Part shown: positions 1,544 through 57,040 of the stretch, piece after piece
How positions within the stretch are numbered: position 1 is the stretch's first letter
Layout: every line of letters starts with the position of its first letter
Assembly (NCBI GenBank): GCA_964387595.1
Contig: CAYLYF010000004.1
Location: 2,139-66,138, forward strand
Reading direction: 5' to 3'
Source: an uncultured Thermodesulfobacteriota bacterium
GTDB lineage: Bacteria; Desulfobacterota; WTBG01; CAIYCZ01; CAIRTM01
DNA: 64,000 nucleotides
Made by a program: the position numbers and the translations under genes
Notes under the pieces: generated by a model
Database searches by the model: none
Seen by the model: the letters and a program-made list of their open reading frames with translations, nothing else
Told to the model about the DNA's origin: nothing

Positions 1544-1806
1544 ATTTTGTTTCCGGTTACCTATTCTATATGTTTTGGCAGTTCAGTCCAGAGGCTGTTG
1601 ATTGGTATTATGGTGAATCTGCTGGTTTTTAAGAAGCCTAAAGTTAACTACACAGTATAAGTTATAGTATGCTTTGTGTCAATAAACAATAAGGCTATTG
1701 AGGGGTCAGAAGAACAGGTGTTTTGGGTTGTGAAATTTTTGGAAACTGATTTTAATCCAGGCAATTAATTTAAGTTTTTCTTGACAAAAACCTTTTAAAT
1801 CCTTAA

Positions 1807-1826
1807 TATACTGACCAGTCAGTTTA
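1807..1826. promoter_or_regulatory. Palindromic operator TATACTGACCAGTCAGTTTA (core ACTGAC-N2-GTCAGT), 14 nt upstream of the tetR start codon
   Basis: An inverted repeat seen directly in the sequence. The same core recurs at 2519-2538 and 8335-8354. Confidence 0.6.
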
Positions 1827-1839
1827 TTAAGGATAAGTC

Positions 1840-2436: not shown

Positions 2437-2518
2437 TACAGGTTTAAAGCATAAAATTACAGTTTTTATGAGTATTTAAATCATTCTTGAGTGGGTGGAT
2501 TGTTTTTTATAACATAAC

Positions 2519-2538
2519 TGTACTGACCGGTCAGTTTA
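2519..2538. promoter_or_regulatory. Second copy of the ACTGACCGGTCAGT operator
   Basis: A palindrome lying 16 nt upstream of the 2554 start codon. Confidence 0.55.
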
Positions 2539-2553
2539 TAGAAAGGGCAAAGT

Positions 2554-2988
2554 ATGAATATATTTGAGATGTTCTATGAAAGTTTCAAAAAATATTTTGA
2601 ATTAATACTCAAGGAGGTTGAAAAAGCTGAAGATCCGGAGCTTCAAGTCCGTATTTTTATTGAGGGTTTTGTGAATGTGATCTACGAGGAACGGGAATTT
2701 TTCAGGACTTACGTGGAAGAGTTGTCCCGGAATGCCGCTAATCCGGAAGTGAAAAAAATGAAAACGATTTTTTATGATCAGTTTATGGAACATCTTAAAA
2801 AGTTATTGCAGCAGGGTATCCGTGCCGGTGTTTTTGTTGGTTTTGACACGGAAAAATTAGCCCGGGCGATCTATTTTCTTTCTATCGGCGTTATTTTTAC
2901 CCGTTATGCCATGAAAATCGATTTTGATCTAAAAGAGCAAAACGCGTTTCAAGTTGACAGAATACTGGAGTCCATAAAATCCAGATAA
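2554..2988 (+). CDS. TetR-like ligand-binding (C-terminal) domain protein that lacks an HTH
   Basis: The 144-aa product aligns with the C-terminal half of the upstream TetR (IFTRYAMKIDFDLKEQNAFQVDRILESIKSR versus FFTYFTVRKDFDLAGEHTRQIREFLETIKIS). An in-frame TAG at 2539 rules out any N-terminal extension. Confidence 0.6.
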   Translation: MNIFEMFYESFKKYFELILKEVEKAEDPELQVRIFIEGFVNVIYEEREFFRTYVEELSRNAANPEVKKMKTIFYDQFMEHLKKLLQQGIRAGVFVGFDTEKLARAIYFLSIGVIFTRYAMKIDFDLKEQNAFQVDRILESIKSR

Positions 2989-3018
2989 GAAAGATAAGCA
3001 GGCAAAGGGAGGAATGAT

Positions 3019-4581
3019 ATGAGTTTGCCAGAAGGTGCCTACCCGGCGTTGGAAGACGCTCTGGGTAAGAATAATGTGAGTGATGATCCGTCCATAACCT
3101 CCGGTTACAGCTATATGTGGCTGGCTTATGCGACGCATGCTCAGTCCGGACGATACCGCCCGGCTGCTGTGGCCTTGCCGGAAAGCACCGGGGACATTCA
3201 GACTATCATCAAAATTGCCAACCGTTACGGGTTCAATTATATACCGGTTGGAACCAATTTGTTCCCGCCGAGCATGCCTACCCGTCCGGACACAATTATT
3301 ATCGATCCCAAACGGATGAACCGCATTCTGGAAATTGATACCGATAATATGTTTGCGGTAGTTGAACCTTATGTTACCTATGCCCAGCTTCAGGCAGAAA
3401 CCATGAAGAAGGGGCTGACCCTTACGGTTTGTGAAGGCGGTTCCCAGTGTTCGGTGCTTGCGAATAATATGTTTCAGGGGATGGGCGGAACCGGTCACAA
3501 GTTTGGATTCAACCGGGGTATTCTGGGCTGTGACTGGATACTGCCGAATGGCGAGCTTTTAAAGATCGGCTCCCGGGGGAATGCCCGCGGCGACTGGTTC
3601 TGGGGGGATTGTGCCGGGATGAACTTAAAAGGGCTGCTGCGGGGGGATAGCGGACACTGCGGTGGTCTGGGCATGGTGACCACCATGGCGGTAAAACTGT
3701 TTCCTTATCCGGGACCCAAAACTTTTCCAGTGAAAGGGACCAGTCCCAATTTTAATACAGATTTTCCGAAAGATCGTTTTAAGGTTAACCTGATAAAATT
3801 TCCGACTCGCGAAAAGCTGATTGATGCCATGTATGAGATCGGGCATGAAGAGATCGCGATTGCTGTGCATGAGGAACCGGCCAGCATGATTTTGTGCGGT
3901 GAGTCTCCTTCGGTTGAATATTTTTGGGAAAAATGGCCGGATTTCAAGAAAAAATGGACCAACGTGCTGTCTGTGACTCTGTTTGGTTTTTCATCTTCAC
4001 GTCAGGTCGAATATGAGCAGACGGTACTTGATGCGATTGTTAAAGAAACTGATGGCGAATATATTACTGAAAATTCAGAGCTTTGGGAACATGCCAGCTG
4101 CAACCTTGGAGAACAGTTCCGTACCGGCGGTTCCAACCGGCTTTTCAGGATTGCGGGTGATTTTTTTGTGATGGGCGGATTCGGCTTTGATTCTCTGGAT
4201 CAGAGCCTGAAAATGAGCAAGGAGTATATGTGGCCTCTCATTTTAGATGGTATTGAAAAAGGACACCTGGCGCCCGATGATATGGGAAATGACTGGCTGA
4301 ACTCCTACCAGCTGGGCCACTTTGCAGAAACCGAGCCGCTGATTTATTTTGAGCACGATCTTGAGGCCGGCGGTACTTTTATGAACGGTTATGTCACCAC
4401 CGTAATGGAAGCCGTGAAAAGAAAAATGACCAGCTCCTGGCCGCTGGGTCCCATGACCTATATTACCGGCCCGGCCATGTGTAATTATCATGAACTGGTG
4501 AAAAAAATAAAAGAAGCGGTTGATCCGAGGATGACCTCAAATCCGGGCTATCCTGTTCCGCCTGAACCGCCGCAGGGATAA
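3019..4581 (+). CDS. FAD-binding (PCMH-type) oxidase, GlcD-like subunit
   Basis: FAD-binding domain-4 pattern (AAVALPESTGDIQTIIKIANRYGFNYIPVGTNLF ... GGTGHKFG). A good RBS (GGGAGG) precedes the start. It is the first of three adjacent oxidase genes. Confidence 0.7.
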   Translation: MSLPEGAYPALEDALGKNNVSDDPSITSGYSYMWLAYATHAQSGRYRPAAVALPESTGDIQTIIKIANRYGFNYIPVGTNLFPPSMPTRPDTIIIDPKRMNRILEIDTDNMFAVVEPYVTYAQLQAETMKKGLTLTVCEGGSQCSVLANNMFQGMGGTGHKFGFNRGILGCDWILPNGELLKIGSRGNARGDWFWGDCAGMNLKGLLRGDSGHCGGLGMVTTMAVKLFPYPGPKTFPVKGTSPNFNTDFPKDRFKVNLIKFPTREKLIDAMYEIGHEEIAIAVHEEPASMILCGESPSVEYFWEKWPDFKKKWTNVLSVTLFGFSSSRQVEYEQTVLDAIVKETDGEYITENSELWEHASCNLGEQFRTGGSNRLFRIAGDFFVMGGFGFDSLDQSLKMSKEYMWPLILDGIEKGHLAPDDMGNDWLNSYQLGHFAETEPLIYFEHDLEAGGTFMNGYVTTVMEAVKRKMTSSWPLGPMTYITGPAMCNYHELVKKIKEAVDPRMTSNPGYPVPPEPPQG

Positions 4582-4660: not shown

Positions 4661-6199
4661 ATGGATGAACAAAAGCTGGCCAAGGTGGATTATCAAAAGC
4701 CACTTGAAGATGTATCCTATGGAGAGGTAACGGCGGCAAAGGGTAAATATCAGAAAGAGATAAACCATAAAATAGCTGCTATTGTGGGTGAAAAAAATGT
4801 ATCTGATATGCCGGAAGACCTGGAAAAATATGCTTCTGATAAAAGTCTGGAGAGATATGGTAAGCCGGCCTTTGTGGTCTGTCCGAAAAACATGGAACAG
4901 ATCTGCGAGCTGGTGAAATACGCAAATACGATCCGGCTGCCGATTATCCCGGTCAGCTCAGGCACGCATAATTACGGCGCTGCCCTGCCGCGTATGGGCG
5001 GTATGATCCTTGATTTATCCGGTTGGAAAGAAATCCATAAAATAGATCACAGAAATCGTGCGGTTCGGGTCGCGCCGGGAGTGAATTATAATGAACTTCA
5101 GGATGCCCTTGAAAAAGAGGGGTTAAGAGCGCTTATTCCTCTTTTGCCGCGTAAAGACCAGTCCGTTTTGACCGCTCACATGGAAGCCCATCCCATGCTG
5201 ATTCCGGAGTTCAACTACAGCGAACCGCTTTATACCGCAGAAATCGTATTACCCTCCGGCGAGCTTTTTCGAACCGGCTCAGCCGCAGTGGCGCCGCCGG
5301 AACAGACCCAGACAGATATGGTCGGGCCCTGGGGGCCGGGACTGGACTGGAACCGGCTCTTTACCCGCAGTCAGGGGACCCTGGGGGTGATTACCTGGGC
5401 AAATATCATGGCAGAGCCAAAGCCCGGGAAACAGAAACTCTATTTTACAGCCAGTCCGGATATAAATACGCTGGTTAATTTTACCGGACGGATTCAGAAA
5501 AAATGGATTGGTTATGAATGTTTTATCCTGAACAGAACCCATCTGGCCAATATCCTGTCAAAAACGCCGAGTGAAAGAGAAATGATTCAAAGGAAGCTTC
5601 CGGCATATGTTCAGATTTTCTGTATCGGCGGTTTAAAACGCTTTCCGGATGAGCGTATTGCCTATCAGCAGGCTGATTTTCTGGAGACCTCGCAGGAGTG
5701 CGGAGTGACGCCGCTTCATACGATTCCTGAAGCGCCGCGGGCCGCTGATTTTTTTGAGAAGAATCTGCACCGCTGCTGGGAAGGAGATGTGTACTGGAAG
5801 GATGTCCGCAGAGGAGCAAGCGCTGACATTTTCTTTATTACCACCATGAATAAAGCAGCTGATTTTATTCATGTGATGCAGCAGCAGGCGGGTGCGGCCG
5901 GGTACAATTTTCAGGACATCGGATTTTACCTGCAGCCCATAGAAAACGGCCGGGCAGCGCATGTGGAATTTTCTATTCCTTTCAACCCCGAAGATCAGCA
6001 GGAATGCGCACAGGTAAAACAGCTGCATGGTCTGGCCAGTGAAGAAGTCTATAATCTGGGCGCTTTGTTCACCCGGGCATACGGGCCCTGGGCGCAGATA
6101 ACTGCAAGCCGAAATGCGGGGCAGTACCAGACCGCAAAGCTCATAAAAGAACTTTTAGATAAGAACAATATCATGAACCCGGGGAAACTGGGTCTTTAG
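4661..6199 (+). CDS. FAD-binding (PCMH-type) oxidase, second subunit (GlcE-like)
   Basis: FAD_binding_4-like N-terminus (PAFVVCPKNMEQICELVKYANTIRLPIIPVSSGTHNYG). It is paralogous to the preceding gene. Confidence 0.65.
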   Translation: MDEQKLAKVDYQKPLEDVSYGEVTAAKGKYQKEINHKIAAIVGEKNVSDMPEDLEKYASDKSLERYGKPAFVVCPKNMEQICELVKYANTIRLPIIPVSSGTHNYGAALPRMGGMILDLSGWKEIHKIDHRNRAVRVAPGVNYNELQDALEKEGLRALIPLLPRKDQSVLTAHMEAHPMLIPEFNYSEPLYTAEIVLPSGELFRTGSAAVAPPEQTQTDMVGPWGPGLDWNRLFTRSQGTLGVITWANIMAEPKPGKQKLYFTASPDINTLVNFTGRIQKKWIGYECFILNRTHLANILSKTPSEREMIQRKLPAYVQIFCIGGLKRFPDERIAYQQADFLETSQECGVTPLHTIPEAPRAADFFEKNLHRCWEGDVYWKDVRRGASADIFFITTMNKAADFIHVMQQQAGAAGYNFQDIGFYLQPIENGRAAHVEFSIPFNPEDQQECAQVKQLHGLASEEVYNLGALFTRAYGPWAQITASRNAGQYQTAKLIKELLDKNNIMNPGKLGL

Positions 6200-43843: not shown

Positions 43844-44413
43844 ATGAAAAAACGCTGCGGCTGGGTAACAGATGACCCTGTTTACCTTGAATACCACGAC
43901 ACGGAATGGGGAGTTCCTGTCCATGACGACAGACTGCTGTTTGAGTTCCTTATCCTTGAGGGTGCCCAGGCAGGACTGAGCTGGATCACGGTCCTTAAAA
44001 AAAGAGAGAATTACAGAAAAGCTTTTGATAATTTTGACCCGGCTAAAATAGCAAAATACAATAAGAACAAAACCAACGCCCTCCTTTTAAACCCGGGAAT
44101 CATAAGAAATAGACTAAAGATAGAATCTGCCATAAAAAATGCAGGGGCAATTTTAGAAATTAAAAAAAGCTTTAAAAGCTTTGAAACGTTTATCTGGCAG
44201 TTTGTAAATCACAAACCCATATTAAATAAGTGGAAAAATGACACGGATGTGCCGACGACCTCTCCTGAAGCAGAAGAAATGAGCAGAACTCTAAAGAAAA
44301 TGGGGTTTAGCTTTGTTGGACCGACAATATGCTACTCTTTTATGCAGGCAGTCGGCATGGTCAACGACCATGTAACCTCCTGCTTCCGACACAAAAAAAT
44401 CAAAAAACAATAA
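43844..44413 (+). CDS. tag: DNA-3-methyladenine glycosylase I
   Basis: MKKRCGWVTDDPVYLEYHDTEWGVPVHDDRLLFEFLILEGAQAGLSWITVLKKRENYR is a canonical Tag sequence. The start was chosen at the internal ATG. Confidence 0.85.
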   Translation: MKKRCGWVTDDPVYLEYHDTEWGVPVHDDRLLFEFLILEGAQAGLSWITVLKKRENYRKAFDNFDPAKIAKYNKNKTNALLLNPGIIRNRLKIESAIKNAGAILEIKKSFKSFETFIWQFVNHKPILNKWKNDTDVPTTSPEAEEMSRTLKKMGFSFVGPTICYSFMQAVGMVNDHVTSCFRHKKIKKQ

Positions 44414-44466
44414 AGGAGTTCCCTGTTAAACGCAGGAAACTCCTTTTAAATAACGCTTATCATGTT

Positions 44467-44667
44467 TTACTGTCTTACAACCTTTTTTGCCTGTGGACCT
44501 TTCTGGCCCTGTTCTATCTCTATAGAAACCTTTTCCCCCTCATTCAGGGTACGATAACCTTCAGTCTCAATAACACTAAAATGCACGAAAACATCTCCCT
44601 GCTCTTCTGTTTCGATGAAGCCATAGCCTTTTTTTGCGTCAAACCATTTAACGGTACCTTCAGTCAT
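44467..44667 (-). CDS. csp: cold-shock protein (CspA family)
   Basis: [63 protein letters not shown]. Confidence 0.9.
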
Positions 44668-45103
44668 CTCTCTCTTGCTCCTTTCTTAATTGTTAAAACT
44701 GCTCGTAAGGAGGCTACTTTGACTGCTGGTTTGAAACCGAATAGCAAAAGATGCAAAAACAATTTCAAACGTAGAACAAAATAACAACCAGACTTGCATA
44801 CTTAAAGTAGCAGGTAAAACAGTATACCTGTCTATATTTTTGGACTTTATATATTTTAGAAATAAAATGCAAGTTTTTTTTGTACTATTTTACTACTAAA
44901 ATAGAATTTTTTTGCATTATGAATACAGGTTAAACCTTCTTGACAAAAACCATCCATAATTATAATTACATCCTATAAAATTTCATAAATATATTATTTT
45001 AATCTCGTTATATAAGTTTTTTCTTCGATAATCTTAGCAAATATCTGATAAATATGATAACTAGTTAATATTCAAAAATACAAAAATAAAAGCAAGGACC
45101 AAT

Positions 45104-46423
45104 ATGCTTAATAACAGACTCACTGCCGGGAATTTCATCATATCTTCTCTTGGAACACCCAAAAAAAACTCTCCTTTAATAAAAGAAAAAGAACTGTTTG
45201 TAAACGAAACACAAAAAATAACGCAATCTGCAGATATGGAAGAAATAAATTCCTTAATCAGACAGGGCAAAGACCTTCCTTCTTTTGAACTTGCAGGCCC
45301 CAGGAAAAAGATATTTTTTGATTCAAAAAAGGTCAATTGCGCAATAGTGACCTGCGGAGGGCTTTGTCCCGGGATAAACGACGTTATCAGGGCCATTGTT
45401 TACGAATCATATTCAAGATATAAGGTTAATAAAGTCTATGGCTTCAGGTACGGCTACCAGGGAATGGTTAAAAAAAGCAATATCCCTCCCCTTCTTTTAG
45501 ACACGGACATGGTAAATGAGATTCATGAAAAAGGGGGCACCCTGCTGGGCTCATCCCGCGGACCTCAAAACAAAGATAAAATGGTTGATTATCTTCAGGA
45601 GCTTGACATCTCTATTCTTTTTGCAATTGGCGGAGACGGGACGTTGAGAGGGGCATCAGATATTGCATCAAAAATAAAAGAAAGAAAACTTGATATTTCA
45701 GTCATCGGCATCCCCAAAACCATTGATAATGACATTTCTTTTATTGAACAGACCTTTGGATTTGAAACAGCTGTTGAGGAAGCCCGTTCTGTGATTCAGT
45801 CGGCACATATCGAATCTAAAGGAGCTGAAAACGGCATTGGGCTGGTAAAACTGATGGGACGGGATTCCGGGTTTATTGCGGCCCAGGCAACACTTGCAAA
45901 TGCCGATGTAAACTTTTGTCTTATTCCCGAAGTACCGTTCACCCTCACCGGCAAAAACGGCATTTTCCCTCTTTTAAAAAACCGGCTTATAAAACGCAGA
46001 CATTCGGTTATTGTGGTGGCTGAAGGCGCCGGTCAGGACCTGATAGAAAAAGAGCATGAAAGCATCAAAGAAAGAAGGATAGATGCTTCAGGAAATATTC
46101 TGAACAAGGACATCGGAATTTTCTTAAAAGACAAGATCACCTTATATTTCAGAAAAAACAGATTTCCGATAACCGTAAAATACATTGATCCCAGCTACAT
46201 TATCCGCAGCAAACCGGCAAACGCAAATGATTCTGTTTTCTGTCTTCAAATCGGTCAAAATGCGGTTCATGCCGGAATGGCCGGAAAAACCGATATGCTC
46301 GTCAGTTACTGGAACCACAACTACACCCACGTTCCCATAAAACTTGCCACCTCAAAAAGAAAAAAGATTGATCCGGAAGAAAGACTCTGGAAAACCGTGC
46401 TTTCAATGACTGACCAGCATTGA
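45104..46423 (+). CDS. pfk: 6-phosphofructokinase (long, group-III type; ATP- or PPi-dependent)
   Basis: GGLCPGINDV, FAIGGDGTLRGA, IPKTIDND and KLMGRDSGF motifs. The start may instead be the internal Met at 45236. Confidence 0.8.
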   Translation: MLNNRLTAGNFIISSLGTPKKNSPLIKEKELFVNETQKITQSADMEEINSLIRQGKDLPSFELAGPRKKIFFDSKKVNCAIVTCGGLCPGINDVIRAIVYESYSRYKVNKVYGFRYGYQGMVKKSNIPPLLLDTDMVNEIHEKGGTLLGSSRGPQNKDKMVDYLQELDISILFAIGGDGTLRGASDIASKIKERKLDISVIGIPKTIDNDISFIEQTFGFETAVEEARSVIQSAHIESKGAENGIGLVKLMGRDSGFIAAQATLANADVNFCLIPEVPFTLTGKNGIFPLLKNRLIKRRHSVIVVAEGAGQDLIEKEHESIKERRIDASGNILNKDIGIFLKDKITLYFRKNRFPITVKYIDPSYIIRSKPANANDSVFCLQIGQNAVHAGMAGKTDMLVSYWNHNYTHVPIKLATSKRKKIDPEERLWKTVLSMTDQH

Positions 46424-46460
46424 TGTCCCTCTCGAAATTTCCAGTATCTCCGCAAACATA

Positions 46461-46503
46461 AAAAAAGCCCCTGCAACAATAAAAAAGTGCGGGGGCTTTT
46501 TAT
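46461..46503 (+). terminator. terminator-like hairpin (AAAAAGCCCC ... GGGGGCTTTTT)
   Basis: A GC stem with an unusually large (~19-nt) loop and a U-tract, lying 40 nt after the pfk stop. Confidence 0.4.
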
Positions 46504-46576
46504 AATATCTAATTAGAGCATTTTCATAACGTGTAACCATTGCGCAACAAAAGGCTGAAGCGGTACAATCAAAAAG

Positions 46577-46690
46577 TCAAATTTCAAAGTTCAAATGCCA
46601 AATGAATGACAAAAAAGAAAAAAGGATAAAAGGGTTTGGCCTTGGTGTTTTTCAGTTTTATTTGATATTTTTAATTTGAACTTTGAAATT
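46577..46690. repeat. Inverted repeat: a 19-bp arm TCAAATTTCAAAGTTCAAATG and its complement, separated by ~75 bp
   Basis: The arm at 46577-46597 pairs with the one at 46672-46690 (18 of 19). The element is AT-rich and lies between pfk and the ParB-like gene. Confidence 0.5.
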
Positions 46691-46761
46691 TCATTTTAAT
46701 TCATTTAAATCGTTCAATCCGTTCAAACTGTTCTTGAGGCTACAATATTAAAAAAATTGCT

Positions 46762-47151
46762 CTAGTCAAGTCCAAACAGTCTGTTTATCATCTTAATTAT
46801 CACATCTAATACTCTTTTTAACCATCCGGGGTTTTTCAATGTCTCAAGACGGGCCCTGGCATCTTCAAGTTCCTCTTCTGAAAAATCTTTCCGCACCACA
46901 TTTTCTTCGACCTCAAGCTCAAGTTTTTCAATTTCAGATATTTCATCCACGGCCAAAACATCAATAAATCTCCAGCCCAGAGCCTTTGCTGATTCTATTC
47001 TTCTATGTCCGGCAATAAGAAAATTATCTCTGGTAATGACAACCGGGTTCATCAGTCCGTGCTTGCGAAGACTTTCAATCAAAGGCGTTAAATCACCCAG
47101 CTCCTTTCTTATCCGTTTTTTGATCTTTATTTCTTCAATACGTATCTGCAA
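46762..47151 (-). CDS. ParB-like nuclease-domain protein (short, N-terminal domain only)
   Basis: NPVVITRDNFLIAGHRRIESAKALG ParB/Srx-fold motif. The product is 129 aa. Confidence 0.55.
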   Translation of the reverse strand: MQIRIEEIKIKKRIRKELGDLTPLIESLRKHGLMNPVVITRDNFLIAGHRRIESAKALGWRFIDVLAVDEISEIEKLELEVEENVVRKDFSEEELEDARARLETLKNPGWLKRVLDVIIKMINRLFGLD

Positions 47152-47305
47152 GGTATTTTCCCAAAATTAAATCCTGTCGTAAAAGCAATATAGAATAAAC
47201 GCCTTTGCGTGTCAATAACACACCGGCAGATAGTCCAGATTGCTGTCTTTGAAATGTTCCGGGAAAAAACAGGGGAAAGAAAAATATATTTTTAACAGCT
47301 TAAAA

Positions 47306-47533
47306 TCAAAACCTGTAAACCATGGTGTCCTGATCAGGCAGGTTCTCATCCGCCACAACATCAGAGTCTGCATTATAACTGAAATCATCCTCGTCATAGA
47401 GCTCAGATTCCTGATTCATATTAAAGTCAGCCGCTATTTCGGTAGAATATTCATTGTCCATCCAGACATAATCTTCAGGATTTTCAATTGCTGCACATGC
47501 CAGAAAAACTATTACGATAAGTATTTGTCTCAT
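47306..47533 (-). CDS. small secreted acidic protein (hypothetical)
   Basis: A signal peptide (MRQILIVIVFLACAA) preceded by an AAGGAGAAG RBS, then an Asp/Glu-rich tail. Confidence 0.4.
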   Translation of the reverse strand: MRQILIVIVFLACAAIENPEDYVWMDNEYSTEIAADFNMNQESELYDEDDFSYNADSDVVADENLPDQDTMVYRF

Positions 47534-47942
47534 AATCTTCTCCTTTATATACCTACTATATATTGTAGTACATTTATTAGAACATGCAATATGTTGTGCT
47601 TGTTTTTTTAATAATTTTTAAGGAAACGTTTTAATCATCTTTTGATACCCATAATAGCGCCTGTCTTTGTCATATCAGGTCAAAGGGAATGATTTTTTTT
47701 AATAAGTTGTTGCTATTTCCTATGTTAAATTGATATATATTGATAATATTTTTATTGTTTTTTCTTGTTTAATAATGTCATTAGAAATAGACAAGGATGG
47801 CAAATTAAAAAGCTCCAAATTTAAGGCGCGCAAGTCTAAAGGAATGAGGCGTACTTACTGTACGCCGCAAAGACTGAAGATGCAGCGCAACGCAGCCTCG
47901 CCCTGGCGGGATTTAAGAAGCCATATTGTTTAGGAGAAAAAT

Positions 47943-48917
47943 ATGTCCCGCGGAGACCAGCTCGGAAGACAATGGCAGATCATCCAGACCCTCCTTTCTT
48001 CAAAAAGAGGCAAATCTGCAGCAGAAATATCAGATGAACTTGAATGTAACCTGCGCACAGTCTACCGTGATCTTGAGGCCCTTCAGATCGCGGGATTTCC
48101 GATCTGCAATGAAAGAGAAGACGGAAAAAACCTATGGTCACTTCTTGATACAGTTAAACAAAGCATCCCCATTCCCTTCACCCTGACAGAACTGATGGCC
48201 CTGTATTTCAGCCGCGACCTGCTCCGGACCCTCCAGGACACACTGTTCTATGATTCTCTTGAATCTCTTTTTAAAAAAATAAAAACAACGCTTCCGCCCG
48301 ATTCAGAAGAGTTTCTGAAAAATGTCCAAAAAACCCTTTATGTCAGCCAAAAGCAGTACAAAGAATACGGCAGATCAAAGGGAACCATAAACACGGTAAA
48401 TGATGCGGCCATCCGAAAAAAATCAATTGAGATCGATTATTATTCAATGAGCCATAAAAAAGAGAGCACCCGCAAAGTCGACCCTTACAGAATATGGTTT
48501 TTTAACGGGACCTTCTATTTGATCGCATACTGTCATCAGCGTAAAGAAACACGGATCTTTGCCCTTGACCGCATAAAATCCGTACAAATGACAAATGAAA
48601 ATTTTATTGTTCCGGACGACTTTGATCTGGAAGACTTTATGAAACCGAGCTTCGGCATATTTAAAGGAAAACCGGAAAATGTGAAAATATGGTTTGACAC
48701 TGACGCAGCCGGTTATATCAACGAGAAGGTCTGGCATGAAACGCAACAAATAACAGAAAACAAAGACGGGTCCATCATCTTTGAAGCAGAAATCGCCGTA
48801 ACAGAAGAAATAAAAACATGGGTGTTAAGCTGGGGATCAAAAGCCGCAGTCCTAAAACCGGAGTCATTAAAAAAAGAGATGCTGACTGAGATAAAAAAAA
48901 TGGCGGGTAAATATTAA
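47943..48917 (+). CDS. WYL-domain transcriptional regulator (HTH + WYL + WCX, BrxR/CapW-like)
   Basis: The N-terminal HTH reads KSAAEISDELECNLRTVYRDLEALQIAGFPI. The WYL core reads TFYLIAYCHQRKETRIFALDRIKS. Confidence 0.75.
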   Translation: MSRGDQLGRQWQIIQTLLSSKRGKSAAEISDELECNLRTVYRDLEALQIAGFPICNEREDGKNLWSLLDTVKQSIPIPFTLTELMALYFSRDLLRTLQDTLFYDSLESLFKKIKTTLPPDSEEFLKNVQKTLYVSQKQYKEYGRSKGTINTVNDAAIRKKSIEIDYYSMSHKKESTRKVDPYRIWFFNGTFYLIAYCHQRKETRIFALDRIKSVQMTNENFIVPDDFDLEDFMKPSFGIFKGKPENVKIWFDTDAAGYINEKVWHETQQITENKDGSIIFEAEIAVTEEIKTWVLSWGSKAAVLKPESLKKEMLTEIKKMAGKY

Positions 48918-49184
48918 AAACCGGTTTTAATAACTTTCAAAGTATGGCATGGACCAGTAGTTTTGGATGACCCGCCCCACTTAGCTGTACCAATATTTGT
49001 GAGAGAGCATTTGCTGATTTAGCAGACTTATTAAAATAATTGCTTGCAAAAACAAGTTTGAGGAAACTATATTTATCAAACAAAAAATATTTTAAAAACT
49101 TTAAATACAGCTATTTAGCTTAAATCAACTTAAAAACACCCTTGCCGGGTAAAAATTAATCATTAAAATAATCAAGTAGATATA

Positions 49185-49799
49185 ATGCTTATTCTTCTTT
49201 TTGCCATATTAATATATTTCTACGGCGCTTTGCCTTATGCCTACATTGCAACGTATCTTTTAAAAAAAAGAAACCTTGCTTACGAGGGCTCCGGCAATAT
49301 AGGTGTTACAAACGCATTTAAAATTGGCGGTACAAGCGTGGGCATTATTACGGTGCTGGGCGAAATCTCCAAGGCAATTATTCCAATCCTTGCTTCAAGC
49401 TATTTCTTTGAGAGTAATATAAAAATAACGCTTCTTTTTATATACCTTTCATTTCTCGGGACAAGTTTTTCAATATTTTTAAAAGGCAGAGGCGGTAAAG
49501 GCAGTACCGTAACCATTTGGAGCCTGATGATTTTATCACCAAAGGCCTGTGTCATCATGTTAATTATCTGGACAACACTTGTTCTTTTCTCAAAAAATAA
49601 TCCTGTGATAAAAACAATCCCTCTTTTTTTGATTCCAATTATATTCTATATCTTTGAAAAAGATATTTACTTTACTGTTTTTTGTGTTTTATTCAGTATT
49701 ACAACATTTATAAACAATAGAATAAAAATGGATGACTATAAATTTTATAAAATTTTTAATAATAACCCGTTAAGCAAGAAGCATACGAATGGCACATAA
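49185..49799 (+). CDS. PlsY-family (acyl-phosphate:glycerol-3-phosphate acyltransferase-like) membrane protein
   Basis: EGSGNIGVTNAFKIGG and FLKGRGGKGSTV motifs, with about five transmembrane helices. It is very AT-rich. Confidence 0.55.
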   Translation: MLILLFAILIYFYGALPYAYIATYLLKKRNLAYEGSGNIGVTNAFKIGGTSVGIITVLGEISKAIIPILASSYFFESNIKITLLFIYLSFLGTSFSIFLKGRGGKGSTVTIWSLMILSPKACVIMLIIWTTLVLFSKNNPVIKTIPLFLIPIIFYIFEKDIYFTVFCVLFSITTFINNRIKMDDYKFYKIFNNNPLSKKHTNGT

Positions 49800-52143
49800 T
49801 TATATTTTAAAACTGAGCGACTGCAGCCCGCAATCACCCATCGGCAATAAAGCCCGTTCTCTTCTTTCTCTGGATACTCTTCATTACAAAGTTCCTGACA
49901 CTTATATCTGTACTTTTGATGCCTACAAATCCTTTTTATTAAACCCTGCAGAAACAGAAAAAGTAATTCAAGAAGAATTGGCCGGCATCCTAAACAGTCA
50001 AACAACTTATGCCGTACGCTCTTCATCAAGCCTGGAAGATGGCCGCACCTATTCGTACGCAGGTCTTTTCACCACCGTTCTAAACGTGGAAGGTATAGCT
50101 TCAATATGGACTTCAGTCAAATCTGTCTGGGAAACAGCTGATTCTGAAACCGTTAGATCTTACATCCAAAAAATAGGCCGGAACAAAAAAAAATTTTCAA
50201 TGACTGTCATTATTCAGGAGATGATACCGGCAGAATTCTCAGGGGTTGTATTTACACAAAATCCTTTAACAGGCAAAAACGAAACAGTCATTGAAGTCAT
50301 CAAAGGAACCGGCGACAACCTCGTTCAGAATGGTTTTACTCCTTTTCGATGGAGACTGGACAAGGACGGAATCCTTGAAGAACCCGAACAGAATCTTGTT
50401 TCTAAAGAAACCATATCAATAATTTTTGAACAGACAAATAAATTATCCCGCCAGATTGATAAGCCTCTTGATCTGGAATGGTGTTTTAGTAAAGGATCTT
50501 TATTTTGGCTTCAAATGAGAGAAATAACTGCGATACAGAACACAGATGTTTACACAAACCACTTCTCAAAAGAGTTTCTTCCCGGAATAATAAAACCGTT
50601 GGTATGGTCGATCAGTGTACCGCAGATAAACAAGGCTTGGGTTAAAGTTCTGACTGAGATAATGGGAAAAAATAATCTTGATTATAAACGCTTATCAAAA
50701 TCATTTTATTACCATGCCTATTTTAATACGGGAGTATTAGAAATTATTTTTAAAAAGCTTGGTTTTCCTTCAAAAATACTGGATACGCTTATAATCGGTA
50801 ATACAAAATTTTCAGAAGGAATATCTTACAAGCCCACATTAAGAACACTCCGCTTTGCCCCTCGGATGATATTCTTCCTGTTGGATAAACTTAATATTTA
50901 TAAAAGACTGAGCCTTTTTTTAAAAAAAATTGAAGAAGAGGTTTATGAGATCAAAAAAAATGATTTTAGCACGCTTACAGACAAACAACTTTTAGAACAA
51001 ATTGAGGGGCTGTTATTAAAGACTGATCAGCTAAGTTACTATTATCTTTTAGCACCCTTTATTCTTTATTTTTCAAGTTATTTTCTCAGAAAAAGCATTG
51101 GCACAAAAAACCCAGACTTCGTTCACTTTGACGGTTCAGAAATAAACAGTCTTGAGAATTATGATCCGAATATATATATGATCAAACTAAGTAAACAATT
51201 TAAAAAACTGAATATTAACACCCAGAATACACTTAAAGAGACATCCTATGAAGACTTTTGTTCTATGAAGGGAGTTGAATCTTTTAAATCAGGTGTAAAT
51301 AATTTTCTCGAACGTTTTGGTCATTTTAGCGATAGCGGTACTGACTTTTCTTTTAAACCCTGGAAAGAAACGCCAACTTTATTGCTTCACATTATTACAG
51401 ATTATCAATCCAAAATCCAAAATCCGCGCAATCCGTACAATACGTTAATAAAAACGCTGCCATTTTTCAAAAGAGGAGTAATTAAAATAATCCTAAAAAA
51501 AGTTAAAAAGGCCAGAGAATACAAAGAAAAGACGAGTTATATACACACCTATAGTTACGGCATATTAAGGGATCTTTTTATTCAGCTTGGAAACAGTTAT
51601 CAAAAAAAAGATTTTCTCAATAATAAAGAGGATATATTCCTCTTATATTTTGATGAAATTATGGAAATTGCAGAGAGAAAATCTTTAGGTGAAAACATCC
51701 GAGATAAGATCAAAAAAAGGAAAGAAGACATTTGTCGATATAAAAATATGAATTTGCCAAGCATTATATTTGGCGAACAGGAACCCCCGCCTGAACTTTC
51801 TAAAAATATTGATTTTAGTGGAATTGCCACATCCTGTGGATATTGCAGCGGTTATATAAAAGTAGTAAAAGGTATAAGTGAATATGATAAGATGAATCAG
51901 GGAGACATACTGGTTATTCCCTATTCGGACATTGGGCTGGCGCCATTGTTTTCTAAGGCTGGAGCTGTCATTTCTGAATCAGGCGGAATTCTTTCCCATT
52001 GTTCAATCATAGCCCGGGAGTATAAAATTCCTGCAATAACATCAGTAGAAAGAGCCTGTTCCTTGGAAGATAATACCTTTGTAATCGTTGATGGCTATAA
52101 AGGTGAAGTAAGAATAAGTGAATGTCCTGAAAAAGTTAACTAA
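49789..52143 (+). CDS. PEP-utilising enzyme family protein (PPDK_N ATP-grasp plus phospho-His swivel domain; PEP-synthase / rifampin-phosphotransferase-like)
   Basis: IGNKARSL and VRSSSSLEDGRTYSYAGLFTTVLNV (PPDK_N), and a C-terminal GGILSHCSIIAREYKIPAI phosphohistidine domain. It overlaps the PlsY-like gene by 11 nt. Confidence 0.65.
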   Translation: MAHNYILKLSDCSPQSPIGNKARSLLSLDTLHYKVPDTYICTFDAYKSFLLNPAETEKVIQEELAGILNSQTTYAVRSSSSLEDGRTYSYAGLFTTVLNVEGIASIWTSVKSVWETADSETVRSYIQKIGRNKKKFSMTVIIQEMIPAEFSGVVFTQNPLTGKNETVIEVIKGTGDNLVQNGFTPFRWRLDKDGILEEPEQNLVSKETISIIFEQTNKLSRQIDKPLDLEWCFSKGSLFWLQMREITAIQNTDVYTNHFSKEFLPGIIKPLVWSISVPQINKAWVKVLTEIMGKNNLDYKRLSKSFYYHAYFNTGVLEIIFKKLGFPSKILDTLIIGNTKFSEGISYKPTLRTLRFAPRMIFFLLDKLNIYKRLSLFLKKIEEEVYEIKKNDFSTLTDKQLLEQIEGLLLKTDQLSYYYLLAPFILYFSSYFLRKSIGTKNPDFVHFDGSEINSLENYDPNIYMIKLSKQFKKLNINTQNTLKETSYEDFCSMKGVESFKSGVNNFLERFGHFSDSGTDFSFKPWKETPTLLLHIITDYQSKIQNPRNPYNTLIKTLPFFKRGVIKIILKKVKKAREYKEKTSYIHTYSYGILRDLFIQLGNSYQKKDFLNNKEDIFLLYFDEIMEIAERKSLGENIRDKIKKRKEDICRYKNMNLPSIIFGEQEPPPELSKNIDFSGIATSCGYCSGYIKVVKGISEYDKMNQGDILVIPYSDIGLAPLFSKAGAVISESGGILSHCSIIAREYKIPAITSVERACSLEDNTFVIVDGYKGEVRISECPEKVN

Positions 52144-52154
52144 AAAGTGGCTTA

Positions 52155-52892
52155 TTGCAAAACAGAGAACTATCCATGCCTACAAGAATAATTATTAACG
52201 TACCAATCCTTGTTTTTTCTTTATTTTTGTCTTGCTTCATATTCTACAGTATAAGCTGGGCTGGTTTTCAGTTTCTTGACCCGGAAATACCCAATGGAGA
52301 GACAATCACCTACAGCAGTCGAAGCGATGGAAAAACCATCACGGTTAAAGAACAGATCACTCATATCAGGGACGGGCAAAACAACTTATACGAGATTGCT
52401 TCAGTATCGCCCGTACTGGACACCTATATCCGCGTGAACAGAAAAGATATGACCGTTAGCTCTGTTCAAACCATCCAAAAATATGATGCCGCAACCCTGG
52501 ATTCAAAACTTATTGTAAAAAATTCGAAAGCCAATCCAGATAATGACGCTATTAAAATTCCCCACTTTGTTGCCTTAAGCCATTTGTTAAGAGGCTTCCC
52601 CTTCGAGTCAAAAGAAAAATTACAGATTAATTATTTCGGCGGCAGCGGCAGTAAAAAATTCATGCTCTGTGTCCGTAATAAACACCGCAAGACCATTCAG
52701 GTTATGGGTAAAAAGATCGAATGCTACAAACTTGAATTTGGTCTGGCCGGCTTCCTGTGGGCTGTTCTGCCTGAACTTGAATTGTGGTACAGCGTTGAGC
52801 CGCCCCACTATATGGTCAGATACAAAGGCCCGGAAGGTCCGCCAGGAACACCCAAGCGTTTTATTGAGATAATCGATTATCAAGCACCCTGA
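52155..52892 (+). CDS. hypothetical secreted or membrane-anchored protein
   Basis: An N-terminal hydrophobic segment (IIINVPILVFSLFLSCFIFYSISWA). I recognised no domain. Confidence 0.35.
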   Translation: MQNRELSMPTRIIINVPILVFSLFLSCFIFYSISWAGFQFLDPEIPNGETITYSSRSDGKTITVKEQITHIRDGQNNLYEIASVSPVLDTYIRVNRKDMTVSSVQTIQKYDAATLDSKLIVKNSKANPDNDAIKIPHFVALSHLLRGFPFESKEKLQINYFGGSGSKKFMLCVRNKHRKTIQVMGKKIECYKLEFGLAGFLWAVLPELELWYSVEPPHYMVRYKGPEGPPGTPKRFIEIIDYQAP

Positions 52893-52975
52893 AAACATCA
52901 CCGGGTGTCCCCATTCTCAGAAACGGGGATAAATAATTTTAGGGTTATAATCTTTAAATCGTAAAGGAGACCCTT

Positions 52976-53365
52976 ATGAGTGTTTGGTATGCAGATCTAA
53001 TTAAGCCCCCTTTTAATCCCCCAAACTGGGTTTTCGGTCCGGTTTGGACAATTTTATACATCATGATTGCCTGTTCAATCATTTTATACTTAAAAACACC
53101 CTCTAAACATTTGCCGACGCTCACCATCATTATTCTTTTATCCCACCTCATCTTAAATTTTATCTGGATGCCCCTCTTTTTCAGGCTAAATTCTCTGCTG
53201 CTCTCCTTGATCGATATCCTTGTTTTAGACCTGACACTCATCGTTATCATCTTTCTTTTTTGGAAAACCTCCATGGCAGCTGCTGCATTTTTAATTCCTT
53301 ACTTTCTATGGATTTGTCTCGCGACCTATTTAAACGCAGGTATTTTTCTGCTGAACAGACAATAA
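52976..53365 (+). CDS. tspO: TspO/MBR (tryptophan-rich sensory protein) family, short form
   Basis: WYADLIKPPFNPPNWVFGPVWTILYIMIA ... FLIPYFLWICLATYLN. At 129 aa it appears to lack the first transmembrane helix of canonical TspO. Confidence 0.6.
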   Translation: MSVWYADLIKPPFNPPNWVFGPVWTILYIMIACSIILYLKTPSKHLPTLTIIILLSHLILNFIWMPLFFRLNSLLLSLIDILVLDLTLIVIIFLFWKTSMAAAAFLIPYFLWICLATYLNAGIFLLNRQ

Positions 53366-53419
53366 TTTTTTTGCTAACTGGTAAATAATTCAGATATTAA
53401 TTTTAAAAAGAAGAATGTT

Positions 53420-53991
53420 ATGAATAAAATACTATTGCAAATATTAATTTTTATTTTTATAGGGAATACAGCAATGGCTGAACAAAAGGATAAAGTCATT
53501 TATGATTTTACTAAAGAAAAAGACCTTGCAGAATGGCAGGGAATTAATGACACCGTTATGGGCGGCATCTCCCAAAACCGAATGAAACAGTGCGGAGAAG
53601 CACTTGTATGTTTTTCTGGAAATATCTCTCTGGAGAATTTTGGAGGGTTCTGTTCTGCAAGCTCTCTGCCGACACGGACACATGACCTCAGCGATTTTAA
53701 AGGCATTAAGATAAGGCTTAAAGGCGACGGTAAAAAATACAAGGCAACAGTGAAGAATGACGCTTCATTCAGCGGTTTTGTGTACCAGTTTGAATTTAAG
53801 ACTGAAGCGGGGTAATGCAGCGACGTCATTGCCCCCTTCAATAAATTTATACCGGTCTTCAGGGGAGTTGTTCAGGATAGTACAGACAAATTGAAGAATG
53901 GTAAAATAAAGACGTTTGGTTTCCTGATAGCAGACAAGCAGGAAGGGGCTTTTCGTCTGGAAATTGATAATATCAAGGCTTATTTAAAATA
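53420..53991 (+). pseudogene. CIA30-family (complex-I-intermediate-associated protein 30-like) gene interrupted by an in-frame TAA at 53813-53815
   Basis: The ORF 53420-53815 (…WQGINDTVMGGIS…) continues in the same frame after the TAA for 58 more codons, to 53991 (CSDVIAPFNKFIPVFRGVVQD…FRLEIDNIKAYLK). Confidence 0.55.
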
Positions 53992-54115
53992 GATCGAAAA
54001 ACGCTGTTTGCTTCTGTATTTAAGGCTGTTTGCAGTCAACCCTTCCTCATCCGTTCCGCCTTCTGGACCGGTTATGATTGTAGAACAAAATCCGTTTTTG
54101 ATAAACAAAACCGGT

Positions 54116-55441: not shown

Positions 55442-56068
55442 TTACTGCGCAAGTTTTTCTGCAGCAGCAGAAAGTTCCTGAATCGCTTCGGCAGTAGCAA
55501 AACCCTCACCCTGCCAGCGGATAATCCCCGCTTTATCAAGCAGAAAGGCATGTCCCTTTTGCGGGTCAAGATTCAGCGCCGCCGTATATTTCTCAACATC
55601 ACCATACATGGTCATCACATGCTTATGCTTAAATTCTGGAATGCCGGCCCGCATCCCGCCGTCAATAACAACTTTCATAAACTTATAGCCCGATGAGATC
55701 ATGGGCACCTCATAAAACATAAATCCGTCCCGTTTACCAAAAGTCTCATAAAAAGGATTCAGCCAGGAATCCAGCTGCGGCTGACTCTCCCGCAAAAAGG
55801 CAACCCCCACAAGGGTTACCTTGCCTTTTGCGTCAACGGGCAGTGTTGCAGGCTTATTCTCAAGTGTCTTTGCACTTATCTCAGGAAAAATTTTACCAAT
55901 ATTTGCCTGTTTTTTATCTGTCATGACATATACCCTCTTTTTCTCCTGTTTTTTATCATTTACCTTTTGCGCATAAGCACTTCCGGCACCTGCCGTAAGC
56001 AGCAGCACTATTCCCAAAACACATATAATATAAGTAGTATCTTCTGCTTTAAAGGAATCATTTTTCAT
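55442..56068 (-). CDS. hypothetical periplasmic protein
   Basis: It has a signal peptide (IICVLGIVLLLTAGAGSAYA) and a 208-aa product. I recognised no domain. Confidence 0.4.
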   Translation of the reverse strand: MKNDSFKAEDTTYIICVLGIVLLLTAGAGSAYAQKVNDKKQEKKRVYVMTDKKQANIGKIFPEISAKTLENKPATLPVDAKGKVTLVGVAFLRESQPQLDSWLNPFYETFGKRDGFMFYEVPMISSGYKFMKVVIDGGMRAGIPEFKHKHVMTMYGDVEKYTAALNLDPQKGHAFLLDKAGIIRWQGEGFATAEAIQELSAAAEKLAQ

Positions 56069-56188: not shown

Positions 56189-57040
56189 CTATTTCCGGTT
56201 AAGAATTTCGTATATTTCATCGACCTGTTTGTCGGTAATCTTCGCACCCTTTTTCTGCATCATTTTAATTATCTCTTTGGGAACACCTGAGGTATAGGGG
56301 TCCTTTGCACATGTTTTGACAATAACGTCCATCGGATGGCACTGGGTACACTCACTCTTAAACAACGGCTGCAGCCAGAAAGGCGCTTCAAGAAATTTTG
56401 CAATATTAATGACCTCCTCATCAGACATGTCCGCACCCTTTTTTTTCTGCATCTCCAGTACAATTTCCATGGCCTTTTTCTCATTATCGTGTATTTTCTG
56501 AGCCCGGGTCGCATCATGACATTTGGTGCACTTATCAGAAAATATATCCAAAAGTGTTATATATTTTTCAAATTTTGCCTTCTTATTAAGCAGTTCATGG
56601 ATAACCTTGGCCTGTTCATCCGTTATGTTCGCTCCTTTTTTCTGCATCCGCTTAATGGCTTCCATTGGAACCGGTCCTTTATCACAGACCCGGATAACCC
56701 TGTCCAGGTTGTGGCATTTTGTACATTCCGTCACCAGCATTTCCCATGATGGTTTTTCAAGTACACCGGCTACATTTAAAGCTTCTTCTACTGAAATACC
56801 GGAATCCTTCTTTTGCTGCATCTTCTTCACGATCTCTGTGGGAGATTTTTCCAGTTTGTGGATATTTTGCACACGAGAGGCATCATGGCATTTGGTACAC
56901 TTTTCTTTAACAAAACTTAAAAGTACCATCTCCCTGTCAGCAGCACCACTTGCCATCTCTTTGTCAGCAGCACCACAACCGCTTAAAAAGAAAACGGTAA
57001 ACGAAAAAACAACGGCTATCATAAGCATGCTTTTTTTCAT
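56189..57040 (-). CDS. tetraheme c-type cytochrome lipoprotein built from four ~65-aa repeats
   Basis: Lipobox (FFLSGCG) and four CxxCH motifs (CTKCHD, CTKCHN, CTKCHD, CTQCHP). Each is followed by a conserved ..MQ.KKG..I(T/S)D.. segment. Confidence 0.7.
   Translation of the reverse strand: MKKSMLMIAVVFSFTVFFLSGCGAADKEMASGAADREMVLLSFVKEKCTKCHDASRVQNIHKLEKSPTEIVKKMQQKKDSGISVEEALNVAGVLEKPSWEMLVTECTKCHNLDRVIRVCDKGPVPMEAIKRMQKKGANITDEQAKVIHELLNKKAKFEKYITLLDIFSDKCTKCHDATRAQKIHDNEKKAMEIVLEMQKKKGADMSDEEVINIAKFLEAPFWLQPLFKSECTQCHPMDVIVKTCAKDPYTSGVPKEIIKMMQKKGAKITDKQVDEIYEILNRK

Follow-up and report, generated by a model that had tools for sequence, protein, structure and literature searches.

The 64,000-nucleotide (nt) stretch of DNA analyzed here (the window; contig CAYLYF010000004.1 of GenBank assembly GCA_964387595.1), from an uncultured Thermodesulfobacteriota bacterium, carries two overlapping genes, the first for a PlsY-like membrane protein and the second for an Rph-type dikinase. 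We conclude with high confidence that the two proteins are functionally coupled. Their pairing is far beyond chance, since a PlsY-family open reading frame (ORF) is present at 66 of 80 kinase loci found in metagenomes and the two are in places fused in a single ORF. By published determinants, the PlsY-like protein of the window appears unable to bind glycerol-3-phosphate (G3P) the way PlsY does, yet it retains most of the elements that hold acyl-phosphate. The genes of the module in the window are:

49185..49799, plus strand: PlsY-like gene, encoding a 204-amino acid (aa) integral membrane protein of the PlsY family
49789..52143, plus strand: dikinase gene, encoding a 784-aa Rph-type protein with ATP-grasp and swivel-histidine domains
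49789..49799, plus strand: 11-nt overlap, ATGGCACATAA, between the end of the PlsY-like gene and the beginning of the kinase gene
52176..52892, plus strand: third gene, P245, whose exported product has 238 aa (245 aa with the TTG at 52155 as start)

The kinase ATG (49789–49791) lies inside the 3′ end of the PlsY-like gene, which stops with the TAA at 49797–49799, and this overlap is consistent with co-transcription and translational coupling. The ORF coordinates, the overlap, and the motifs quoted in an initial annotation of this DNA were all confirmed in the sequence, namely EGSGNIGVTNAF and GRGGKGS in the 204-aa translation and VRSSSSLEDG...AGLFTTVLNV and GGILSHCSIIAREYKIPA in the 784-aa translation. 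Its family assignments were borne out by Pfam, which places G3P_acyltransf (PF02660) on the smaller protein (5.3e-28, 98.6 bits against a cut-off of 24.1) and PPDK_N (7e-34) with the PEP-utilizers swivel domain (5e-17) on the larger. Scans for promoters and terminators, and for repeats in the 268-nt upstream region, found none above background in this AT-rich DNA.

Occurrence of the Pair in Bacteria and Archaea

The 80 loci come from a metagenome scan with the kinase alignment, in which PlsY-family ORFs were counted by hidden Markov model (HMM); the "noY" tree labels of the BLAST clusters are less sensitive than this count and were not used for statistics. Ten of the 66 loci with a PlsY-family ORF have it fused to the kinase. 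Among the 56 unfused pairs, 54 are co-oriented, 41 have the genes no more than 100 nt apart, and 53 no more than 1.5 kb apart. Of the 14 loci that have no PlsY-family ORF, only four are flanked on each side by 2 kb or more of sequence, so ~94% of the informative loci (66 of 70) carry the pair. The PlsY-like gene precedes the kinase gene at 36 loci and follows it at 20, and at three the genes are divergent.

In a rough neighbor-joining tree the fusions are spread over at least two branches that lie well apart; in the fusions the kinase sits C-terminal to the PlsY domain. Among the best 120 kinase homologues, 12 are single polypeptides of ~1000 aa combining PF02660, PPDK_N, and PEP-utilizers. 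An exhaustive search with one fusion returned ~11 fusion representatives (clustered at 50% identity), some of them 36–38% identical to the query, and Pfam confirmed two of the representatives. One fusion is a single 1010-aa ORF at positions 577–3609 of locus L017.

The pair was found in metagenome-assembled genomes (MAGs) labeled Lokiarchaeota (L018), Thorarchaeota (L021), Bathyarchaeota (L107, and the L017 fusion), Eubacteriales (L019), and Thermodesulfobacteriota, and also in L022; the taxonomy is that of the MAG records, whose bins can be contaminated. The neighborhood survey suggested in the initial annotation thus finds the pair widely, in bacteria and archaea and in fused form. That annotation had also proposed a coupled module of two genes, and co-occurrence and fusions uphold the coupling; the number of genes does not hold, as P245 is a third gene here and a MacB-type ATP-binding cassette (ABC) exporter accompanies the pair elsewhere.

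Two layouts recur among the loci of the window's own PlsY-like clade. In the first, the PlsY-like gene, the kinase gene, and a gene for a ~240-aa protein follow one another (the window, L007, L008, L011, and L015, the last with a divergent PlsY-like gene); variants are L009, which runs off the contig end, and L012, which has no third gene. In the second, the PlsY-like gene and the 240-aa gene occur with no kinase within 10 kb, or within the short contig of L010 (L003, L010, L013, L014, and L016), joined in L013, L014, and L016 by a DedA/VTT gene. The kinase is not adjacent in five of the 12 loci of the Desulfobacterota clade to which the window belongs, and it is present in all four archaeal-labeled loci.

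A PlsY Fold without the Glycerol-3-Phosphate Pocket

The PlsY-like protein scores 84.6 bits against TIGR00023, the PlsY equivalog model, where the cut-off is 137.2 bits, and falls far short of the thresholds of all other PlsY equivalog models as well. It has the seven-helix PlsY fold, since the only significant PDB matches of its AlphaFold model (AF2; pLDDT 86.2, pTM 0.80) are Aquifex PlsY entries (five, 5XJ5–5XJ8; TM-score 0.72–0.76). By sequence it is part of a separate clade: a search found ~99 homologues of at least 43% identity (E ≤1e-43), and a sharp gap divides them from canonical PlsYs (~30%, E ~1e-19). Among species-representative genomes the clade was found in only 11 loci, from uncultured Thermodesulfobacteriota or "delta proteobacterium" MAGs except for one Bathyarchaeota-labeled bin.

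In Aquifex PlsY the acyl-phosphate is held by a backbone "phosphate hole" in Loop3 (residues 104–107) and the side chains of Thr41 and His92, and the "invariable" G3P pocket comprises a phosphate clamp (Ser35, Arg45, Lys104, and Asn180) and residues binding the 2-hydroxyl (Ser142 and His177) (PMC5700162). The R45K substitution alone removes >90% of activity, His177 is irreplaceable, His177 and Asn180 are indispensable for positioning G3P, and no competent substitute was found for His92 (PMC5700162). All sequences were aligned to the canonical-PlsY HMM, and residue roles were taken from the same study.

Ser35, Arg45, His177, and Asn180 occur in every one of the 21 canonical PlsYs, and His92 and Lys104 each in 20 of them. 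In the Desulfobacterota clade (n = 96), Lys stands in place of Arg45 (96/96), Thr in place of His92 (95/96), and Lys in place of Ser142 (92/96); the clade keeps Thr41 (96/96), Lys104 (90/96), and the glycine loop, and has His177 in two sequences and Asn180 in none. The latter two residues are gone because the HRxNIxRL motif is deleted from the C-terminus, where an invariant (R/K)xDD(F/Y)xxY stands instead (KMDDYKFY in the window). The window protein itself keeps motif 1 (GSGNIGVTN), Ser35, Thr41, Lys104, and the Loop3 GGKG, has Lys45, Thr92, and Lys142, and has neither His177 nor Asn180.

The PlsY-like proteins linked to kinases in the metagenome set (n = 65) have lost the same pocket. Arg45 is found in 0/65, and so in 0/161 over both sets, and His177 and Asn180 in 3/65 each, two of these being fusion ORFs that are probably misaligned; the Loop3 glycines persist, Gly102 in 65, Gly103 in 64, and Gly105 in 61. 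Fused forms additionally lose Thr41 (Ala in 12/12) and Lys104 (Gln or Met in 11/12). Because the phosphate hole is kept and the G3P pocket lost, the PlsY-like protein would not be a standard G3P acyltransferase. It is also unlikely to be the plain housekeeping PlsY of the organism, as it falls below the TIGR00023 cut-off and has none of the G3P-pocket residues Arg45, His177, and Asn180, which canonical PlsYs keep without exception. A GSKA variant of Loop3 was considered as a marker of the layout with no kinase and rejected; it occurs in L003 and L010, but L013, L014, and L016 have GGKG.

An Active-Looking Rph-Type Dikinase

The kinase consists of an N-terminal ATP-grasp domain (PPDK_N), a central family-specific region, and a C-terminal phosphohistidine swivel domain (SH at residues 736–737). 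Pfam gives PPDK_N and PEP-utilizers only, and the TIM-barrel that binds phosphoenolpyruvate (PEP) or pyruvate (PEP-utilizers_C) is missing. The closest solved structure is Listeria Rph (5HV1, 5FBS; E 1.6e-37), aligned over both terminal domains, with SH 736–737 over the catalytic TH of Rph; residues ~250–488, in the position of the rifampin-binding region of Rph, are unaligned. Enzymes of this kind convert substrate and ATP to phospho-substrate, AMP, and inorganic phosphate (Pi), using two substrate-binding domains and a phosphate-carrying histidine domain (PMC4844700).

None of the named families in this neighborhood claims the protein. It scores 226 bits against PRK06241 "PEP synthase" variants (cut-off 883), 194.4 and 160.1 bits against the PigC/RedH models NF052631 and NF052632 (cut-offs 1300 and 1350), 170 and 116.6 bits against the Rph models NF041857 and NF000283 (999 and 1700), 145 bits against the PEP synthase model TIGR01418 (740), and 26.6 bits against TIGR01828 (843), so that PigC is among its better NCBIfam matches. 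The 150 best kinase representatives, at the level of 50%-identity clusters, all score at least 344 bits. The kinase looks enzymatically active, since neither His737 nor the ATP-grasp residues vary among 20 homologues of 35–79% identity.

The Third Gene and Recurrent Neighbors

In the Desulfobacterota clade, P245 is the third gene of the module. It adjoins the PlsY-like gene in 10 of the 11 informative clade loci and is found in 14 loci overall. An N-terminal helix, either a signal or an anchor, precedes an all-beta domain in this protein, which is a remote member of DUF3108. Its AF2 model (pLDDT 88.5, pTM 0.80) matches DUF1849, RseB, EPDR1, LolA, LprG, and 3FZX in a Foldseek search of the PDB (E 1e-5 to 1e-2), a LolA structure with bound stearic acid being among the matches; the fold is probably a LolA/LprG/RseB-like half-barrel, at TM-scores of only 0.3–0.47. 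Other lineages have in its place a MacB-type ABC exporter, composed of an ATPase and a MacB_PCD/FtsX permease and sometimes a periplasmic adaptor, with genes for the ATPase counted 27 times and for the permease 25 times among 92 clustered loci.

Neighbors that recur among 101 non-redundant loci include DedA/VTT proteins (10), a PGAP1-like alpha/beta hydrolase (5), short-chain dehydrogenases/reductases (SDRs; 4), Staygreen proteins (2), and PEMT (2). The locus L024 has an operon of DedA/VTT, PlsY-like, CDP-OH_P_transf, kinase, P245, and TspO genes, the CDP-alcohol phosphatidyltransferase (5314–5985, plus strand) lying between the PlsY-like and kinase genes. An SDR/ketoreductase forms the N-terminus of the kinase in the 1093-aa protein P0340 (L106 95–3376), next to which an ABC ATPase of a MacB system begins with an overlapping start, and free-standing related SDR genes lie directly upstream of the kinase at L069 5063–5944 and L079 2–706. 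These SDR links hint that the substrate bears a keto or hydroxyl group.

A membrane-anchored class-II-chelatase-like protein is encoded at 26 of the 101 loci, usually between the kinase and PlsY-like genes (examples are L041 6429–7664, L073 3072–4301, L025, L033, L044, L075, and L079). It has ~410 aa with three N-terminal hydrophobic helices and the conserved motifs FTHGEP, VGHGQPDEWD, and aiHSQxDxP. The matches exceed the Pfam gathering thresholds for Ferrochelatase and CbiX but are weak (~39 bits), and a PDB sequence search gave only a marginal CbiX match (E ~0.05); the protein appears to represent an uncharacterized family. A gene of the Staygreen family, which is the chlorophyll Mg-dechelatase family, adjoins the module in L107 (5113–5508, minus strand; a Bathyarchaeota MAG) and in L084, and a ferredoxin-dependent bilin reductase is encoded 1.4 kb upstream of the module in L001 (5822–6613, minus strand). 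TspO proteins, which bind porphyrins, are encoded after P245 in four loci, the window, L023, L024, and L097, whose kinases are 51–100% identical. All four are short forms (window 52976–53365, L023 9160–9546, L024 9165–9551, L097 1871–2257); the window TspO spans Pfam positions 21–144 of 145, the first transmembrane helix apparently being missing.

A secreted family that has no Pfam match occurs in nine loci as proteins of ~210 aa, or of ~360 aa with C-terminal membrane helices (among them L050 253–885, L035 with three copies, L043, L008, L017 4552–5625, L072 9116–10258, and L086). Fasciclin-domain proteins often stand with it beside the fused form of the kinase and PlsY-like protein. Its predicted mature N-terminus seems to start with His (…ALA|HAP…, …AWA|HRP…), which might form a metal-binding histidine brace.

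Proposed Mechanism

We propose that the overlapping pair and the P245 gene form one operon for a membrane-bound, ATP-driven group-transfer system. The soluble dikinase, its class assigned from sequence, would phosphorylate a hydrophobic, membrane-associated substrate by way of its ATP-grasp domain and phosphohistidine, releasing AMP and Pi. Its likeliest target is a carboxylate, which would become an acyl-phosphate; a carboxylate is the most economical substrate because acyl-phosphate is the only donor known for the PlsY fold and Thr41, which binds the acyl carbonyl, is invariant in the clade of the window. The activated carboxylate would by default be a fatty acid, with a tetrapyrrole propionate as the main alternative. 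The phosphorylated intermediate would then be handed directly to the PlsY-like protein, where an acceptor displaces the phosphate, and this acceptor would be other than G3P because the donor half of the PlsY site (phosphate hole and Thr41) is largely kept and the G3P pocket lost. To judge by the neighbors, the lipid-like product may leave the membrane through P245, often with DedA, or elsewhere through the MacB-type ABC exporter. The export- or lipid-themed neighbors counted here are P245, the MacB-type ABC, DedA/VTT, PEMT, and, at one locus, the CDP-alcohol phosphatidyltransferase. In PlsY topology the C-terminal end of the PlsY domain, which bears the kinase in the fusions, is cytoplasmic, and this would fit the use of ATP.

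We advance this model of coupled phospho-activation and transfer tentatively, as the reading that we favor but at somewhat short of an even chance; that the chemistry is that of acyl-phosphates is what we infer. Archaea do not have PlsX (PMC6431249). The presence of the kinase in 4/4 archaeal loci, against its absence next to the pair partner in 5/12 clade loci, fits an acyl-phosphate donor and is suggestive at these small numbers. Clade loci that have no kinase are expected under the model because a general acyl-phosphate pool could substitute for the kinase.

Alternative Explanations

One alternative retains the mechanism and differs in substrate class and biological role. The dikinase would activate a propionate of a porphyrin, chlorin, or corrinoid, or otherwise phosphorylate such a molecule, esterification or transfer by the PlsY-like protein would follow in the membrane, and the product would be cleared by P245 with TspO or by an HrtBA/MacAB-like exporter of the MacB type, for tetrapyrrole homeostasis or detoxification. 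MacB-type pumps export heme and protoporphyrin, and chelatase-like, TspO, Staygreen, and bilin reductase neighbors are found at about a third of loci. We know of no tetrapyrrole chemistry in the PlsY family, however, and the lipid-related neighbors are about equally frequent. The Rph-family enzymes PigC, RedH, and HapC bind pyrrolic substrates (PMC13534948), and the PigC model matches the kinase at 194 bits. Against this, the chelatase-like matches are weak and that gene is absent in the clade of the window, Staygreen and bilin reductase occur in only one or two loci, and TspO, the only one of these neighbors in the clade, is limited to one sub-branch. We regard a tetrapyrrole system as unlikely. 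Less likely again is a route to lysophosphatidic acid, in which the dikinase would be a fatty-acid kinase analogous to FakAB, the PlsY-like protein would acylate G3P or glycerol-1-phosphate through a rebuilt pocket, and free fatty acids, captured from outside by P245, would be scavenged into phospholipid. The PlsY fold, Thr41, Lys104, and Loop3 are kept in the clade of the window, three clade lysines (K46, K105, and K143) could make a new phosphate clamp, and the transfer from FakAB to PlsY is a precedent (PMC9136124). The stearic-acid-bound LolA among the fold matches of P245 and the CDP-alcohol phosphatidyltransferase in the L024 operon point the same way. Arg45, His177, and Asn180 are nevertheless all gone, the equivalog cut-off is not reached, the neighbors are exporters rather than importers, and the fused forms have lost even Lys104 and Thr41.

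Other explanations change what the PlsY-like protein does. In a modify-and-export resistance system, the kinase would inactivate a membrane-active xenobiotic or antibiotic, the PlsY-like protein would be an accessory partner in recruitment or further processing, and the ABC pump would expel the product. Characterized Rph relatives inactivate rifampin and zearalenone (PMC4844700, PMC11768653); MacB or ABC-2 exporters are neighbors of the pair at many loci, L019 has an AraC/GyrI-like regulator upstream, and the patchy, cross-domain distribution is as expected under horizontal transfer. A mobile resistance cassette is unsupported, though, because the module is absent from 72,556 plasmid records, in which tblastn with both proteins gave only partial ATP-grasp matches (Deinococcus, Ilyobacter) and one weak PlsY match. 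Resistance also leaves unexplained why a PlsY fold with its phosphate hole should be needed in ~94% of informative loci and in the fusions; the central region of the kinase is dissimilar to the rifampin-binding region of Rph, and the LolA-like, DedA, PEMT, and CDP-alcohol-transferase neighbors point to endogenous lipid metabolism. We consider this reading improbable, and to the same degree a lipid-kinase complex, in which the PlsY-like protein would extract a hydroxyl lipid (polyprenol, diacylglycerol, or long-chain alcohol) and present it to the phosphohistidine, yielding a lipid phosphate with no transfer step. The DedA family, present in 10 loci, is implicated in flipping lipid phosphates, the SDR fusions and neighbors suggest a hydroxyl or keto substrate, the kinase is joined to the C-terminal end of the PlsY domain, and Loop3 is kept in all kinase-linked PlsY-like proteins while the residues contacting acyl-phosphate and G3P vary. 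Yet the kinase has a long conserved central region at the position of the Rph substrate domain, so that a second substrate holder should be needless, and five clade loci keep the PlsY-like protein and P245 with no adjacent kinase, which implies an activity of the PlsY-like protein itself. Very improbable is a coincidence of neighbors, a housekeeping plsY beside an unrelated PEP synthase paralogue, or an anti-phage pair under WYL control, the latter raised in the initial annotation. Named entries for these proteins do read "glycerol-3-phosphate acyltransferase PlsY" and "pyruvate, water dikinase," and a WYL regulator lies upstream. Against coincidence stand the 66/80 co-occurrence, the repeated fusions, the lost G3P pocket, and the missing PEP-utilizers_C. 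No protein of the module (PlsY-like protein, kinase, and P245) matches a PADLOC model, the upstream regulator alone giving matches, to generic WYL models, and that regulator has no homologue in any other clustered locus, including the closest relative, L023 (kinase 77% identical); with PADLOC null for the three proteins and the WYL gene confined to this genome, we rejected WYL control and defense as conserved features.

Relation to Known Systems

The coupled activation and transfer that we favor most resembles the routes from FakA/FakB to PlsY and from PlsX to PlsY, in which a phosphorylated acyl donor is made and then used by a PlsY-fold enzyme with release of Pi (PMC9136124, PMC5700162). The kinase here, in contrast, is of the Rph/PPDK type, producing AMP and Pi, and is not homologous to the DhaK/DhaL-type FakA, and there is no FakB. 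The module further differs from both routes in having no G3P pocket, in its overlapping or fused genes, in its export components, and in its occurrence in archaea.

Listeria Rph (5HV1, 5FBS) shares with the kinase a full-length three-part architecture and the conserved (S/T)-His motif, but the central region does not align, the score is 170 against a cut-off of 999 bits, and the module kinase is obligately tied to a PlsY-fold protein, whereas Rph is not. PigC, RedH, and HapC belong to the same family, bind pyrrolic substrates, and by phosphorylating an oxygen make it a leaving group for group transfer, the same chemistry that we propose for the module; PigC combines activation and condensation in one soluble protein, whereas the second step of the module would fall to a separate or fused membrane enzyme. 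PEP synthase and PPDK have PPDK_N, PEP-utilizers, and the dikinase mechanism in common with the module kinase, which differs in having no TIM-barrel and scoring far under their cut-offs. LolCDE-LolA, HrtBA, and MacAB similarly employ a MacB_PCD/FtsX permease and ATPase, with or without an adaptor, or what in P245 is probably a LolA-like half-barrel, for extracting hydrophobic cargo; P245 differs as a remote DUF3108 protein with low TM-scores to LolA, and no handling of lipoprotein or heme is inferred for the module.

A full-text literature search found no link of PlsY to phosphohistidine or to an Rph- or PigC-type enzyme, and nothing on the module under "PlsY-like" or PF02660 or in the Lipocone preprint. 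The enzyme pair thus appears to be undescribed within the literature searched. It could perform phospho-activated acyl or group transfer through the PlsY fold, and could be categorically new if the chemistry is not acyl transfer.

Implications for PlsY Homologues in Archaea

The usual view of PlsY is of an antibiotic target with a single function, catalysis of the committed step in making bacterial phospholipids. The proteins described here form a large and diverse sister group of PlsY in which the G3P pocket is gone and the fold is tied firmly to an Rph-type dikinase and to machinery for extraction from the membrane. Our model predicts for this group an ATP-dependent phospho-activation followed by phosphate-displacing transfer inside the bilayer. 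It would offer an answer to where the "orphan" PlsY homologues of archaea, organisms that lack PlsX, obtain a phosphorylated donor. It would also give the Rph/PigC family, known so far for inactivating antibiotics and condensing pigments, a function coupled to the membrane. Structural and enzymatic studies could use the natural fusions directly as constructs.

Studies of the lipid divide have counted "PlsY homologs" of Lokiarchaeota and Thorarchaeota as potential G3P acyltransferases (PMC6737245, PMC6431249). All four archaeal-labeled PlsY-family genes inspected (L018, L021, L107, and L017) are linked to a kinase, three of them also to an ABC system, and the G3P pocket is missing from those aligned (L018, L021, and the L017 fusion). 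This advises caution where discussions of mixed membranes and eukaryogenesis take archaeal homologues to be G3P acyltransferases; for the very sequences used in those papers, it is a prediction. In its broadest form, which we consider possible but rather unlikely, the pair would be an unrecognized route that makes and uses phospho-activated hydrophobic acyl donors independently of acyl carrier protein, coenzyme A, and PlsX, in uncultured bacteria, Asgard archaea, and Bathyarchaeota. The Lokiarchaeota and Thorarchaeota "PlsY homologues" would then be paralogues linked to a kinase and an ABC system and devoid of a G3P pocket. Instead of lysophosphatidic acid they would make a different acylated compound for export, either a new lipid or a lipidated tetrapyrrole.

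Other Features of the Region

Further genes flanking the module in the window are:

47943..48917, plus strand: HTH-WYL-WCX regulator (by Pfam), local context outside the conserved module
52976..53365, plus strand: TspO/MBR-family protein of 129 aa, 84 nt past P245, a candidate operon member
53420..53815, plus strand: CIA30-domain protein of 131 aa, a repeated neighbor at 7 of the 101 non-redundant loci
55442..56068, minus strand: ATP10-like (PF05176) protein, a neighbor in four loci including the Thorarchaeota locus L021

CIA30, ATP10-like, and TspO proteins are three families better known from mitochondria, here clustered around the module. Upstream (window 46762–48917), a 129-aa minus-strand ORF with only a ParB_N domain has a weak PADLOC match to a type II methyltransferase model. 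This ORF and the WYL/WCX regulator have no counterpart in related loci and may be a separate genome-specific insertion.

The GC content of window positions 44000–54000 is 0.35–0.39, compared with 0.42–0.51 in the upstream flank and 0.40–0.45 in the downstream flank. Nearly all genes before ~54 kb are on the plus strand and those beyond it on the minus strand, and cumulative GC skew has its maximum near 42 kb. A minus-strand gene at 56189–57040, shared with L023, encodes a protein of 283 aa with four CxxCH motifs (KCTKCHD…ECTKCHN…KCTKCHD…ECTQCHP) in an internal two-fold repeat, presumably a small multiheme cytochrome c.

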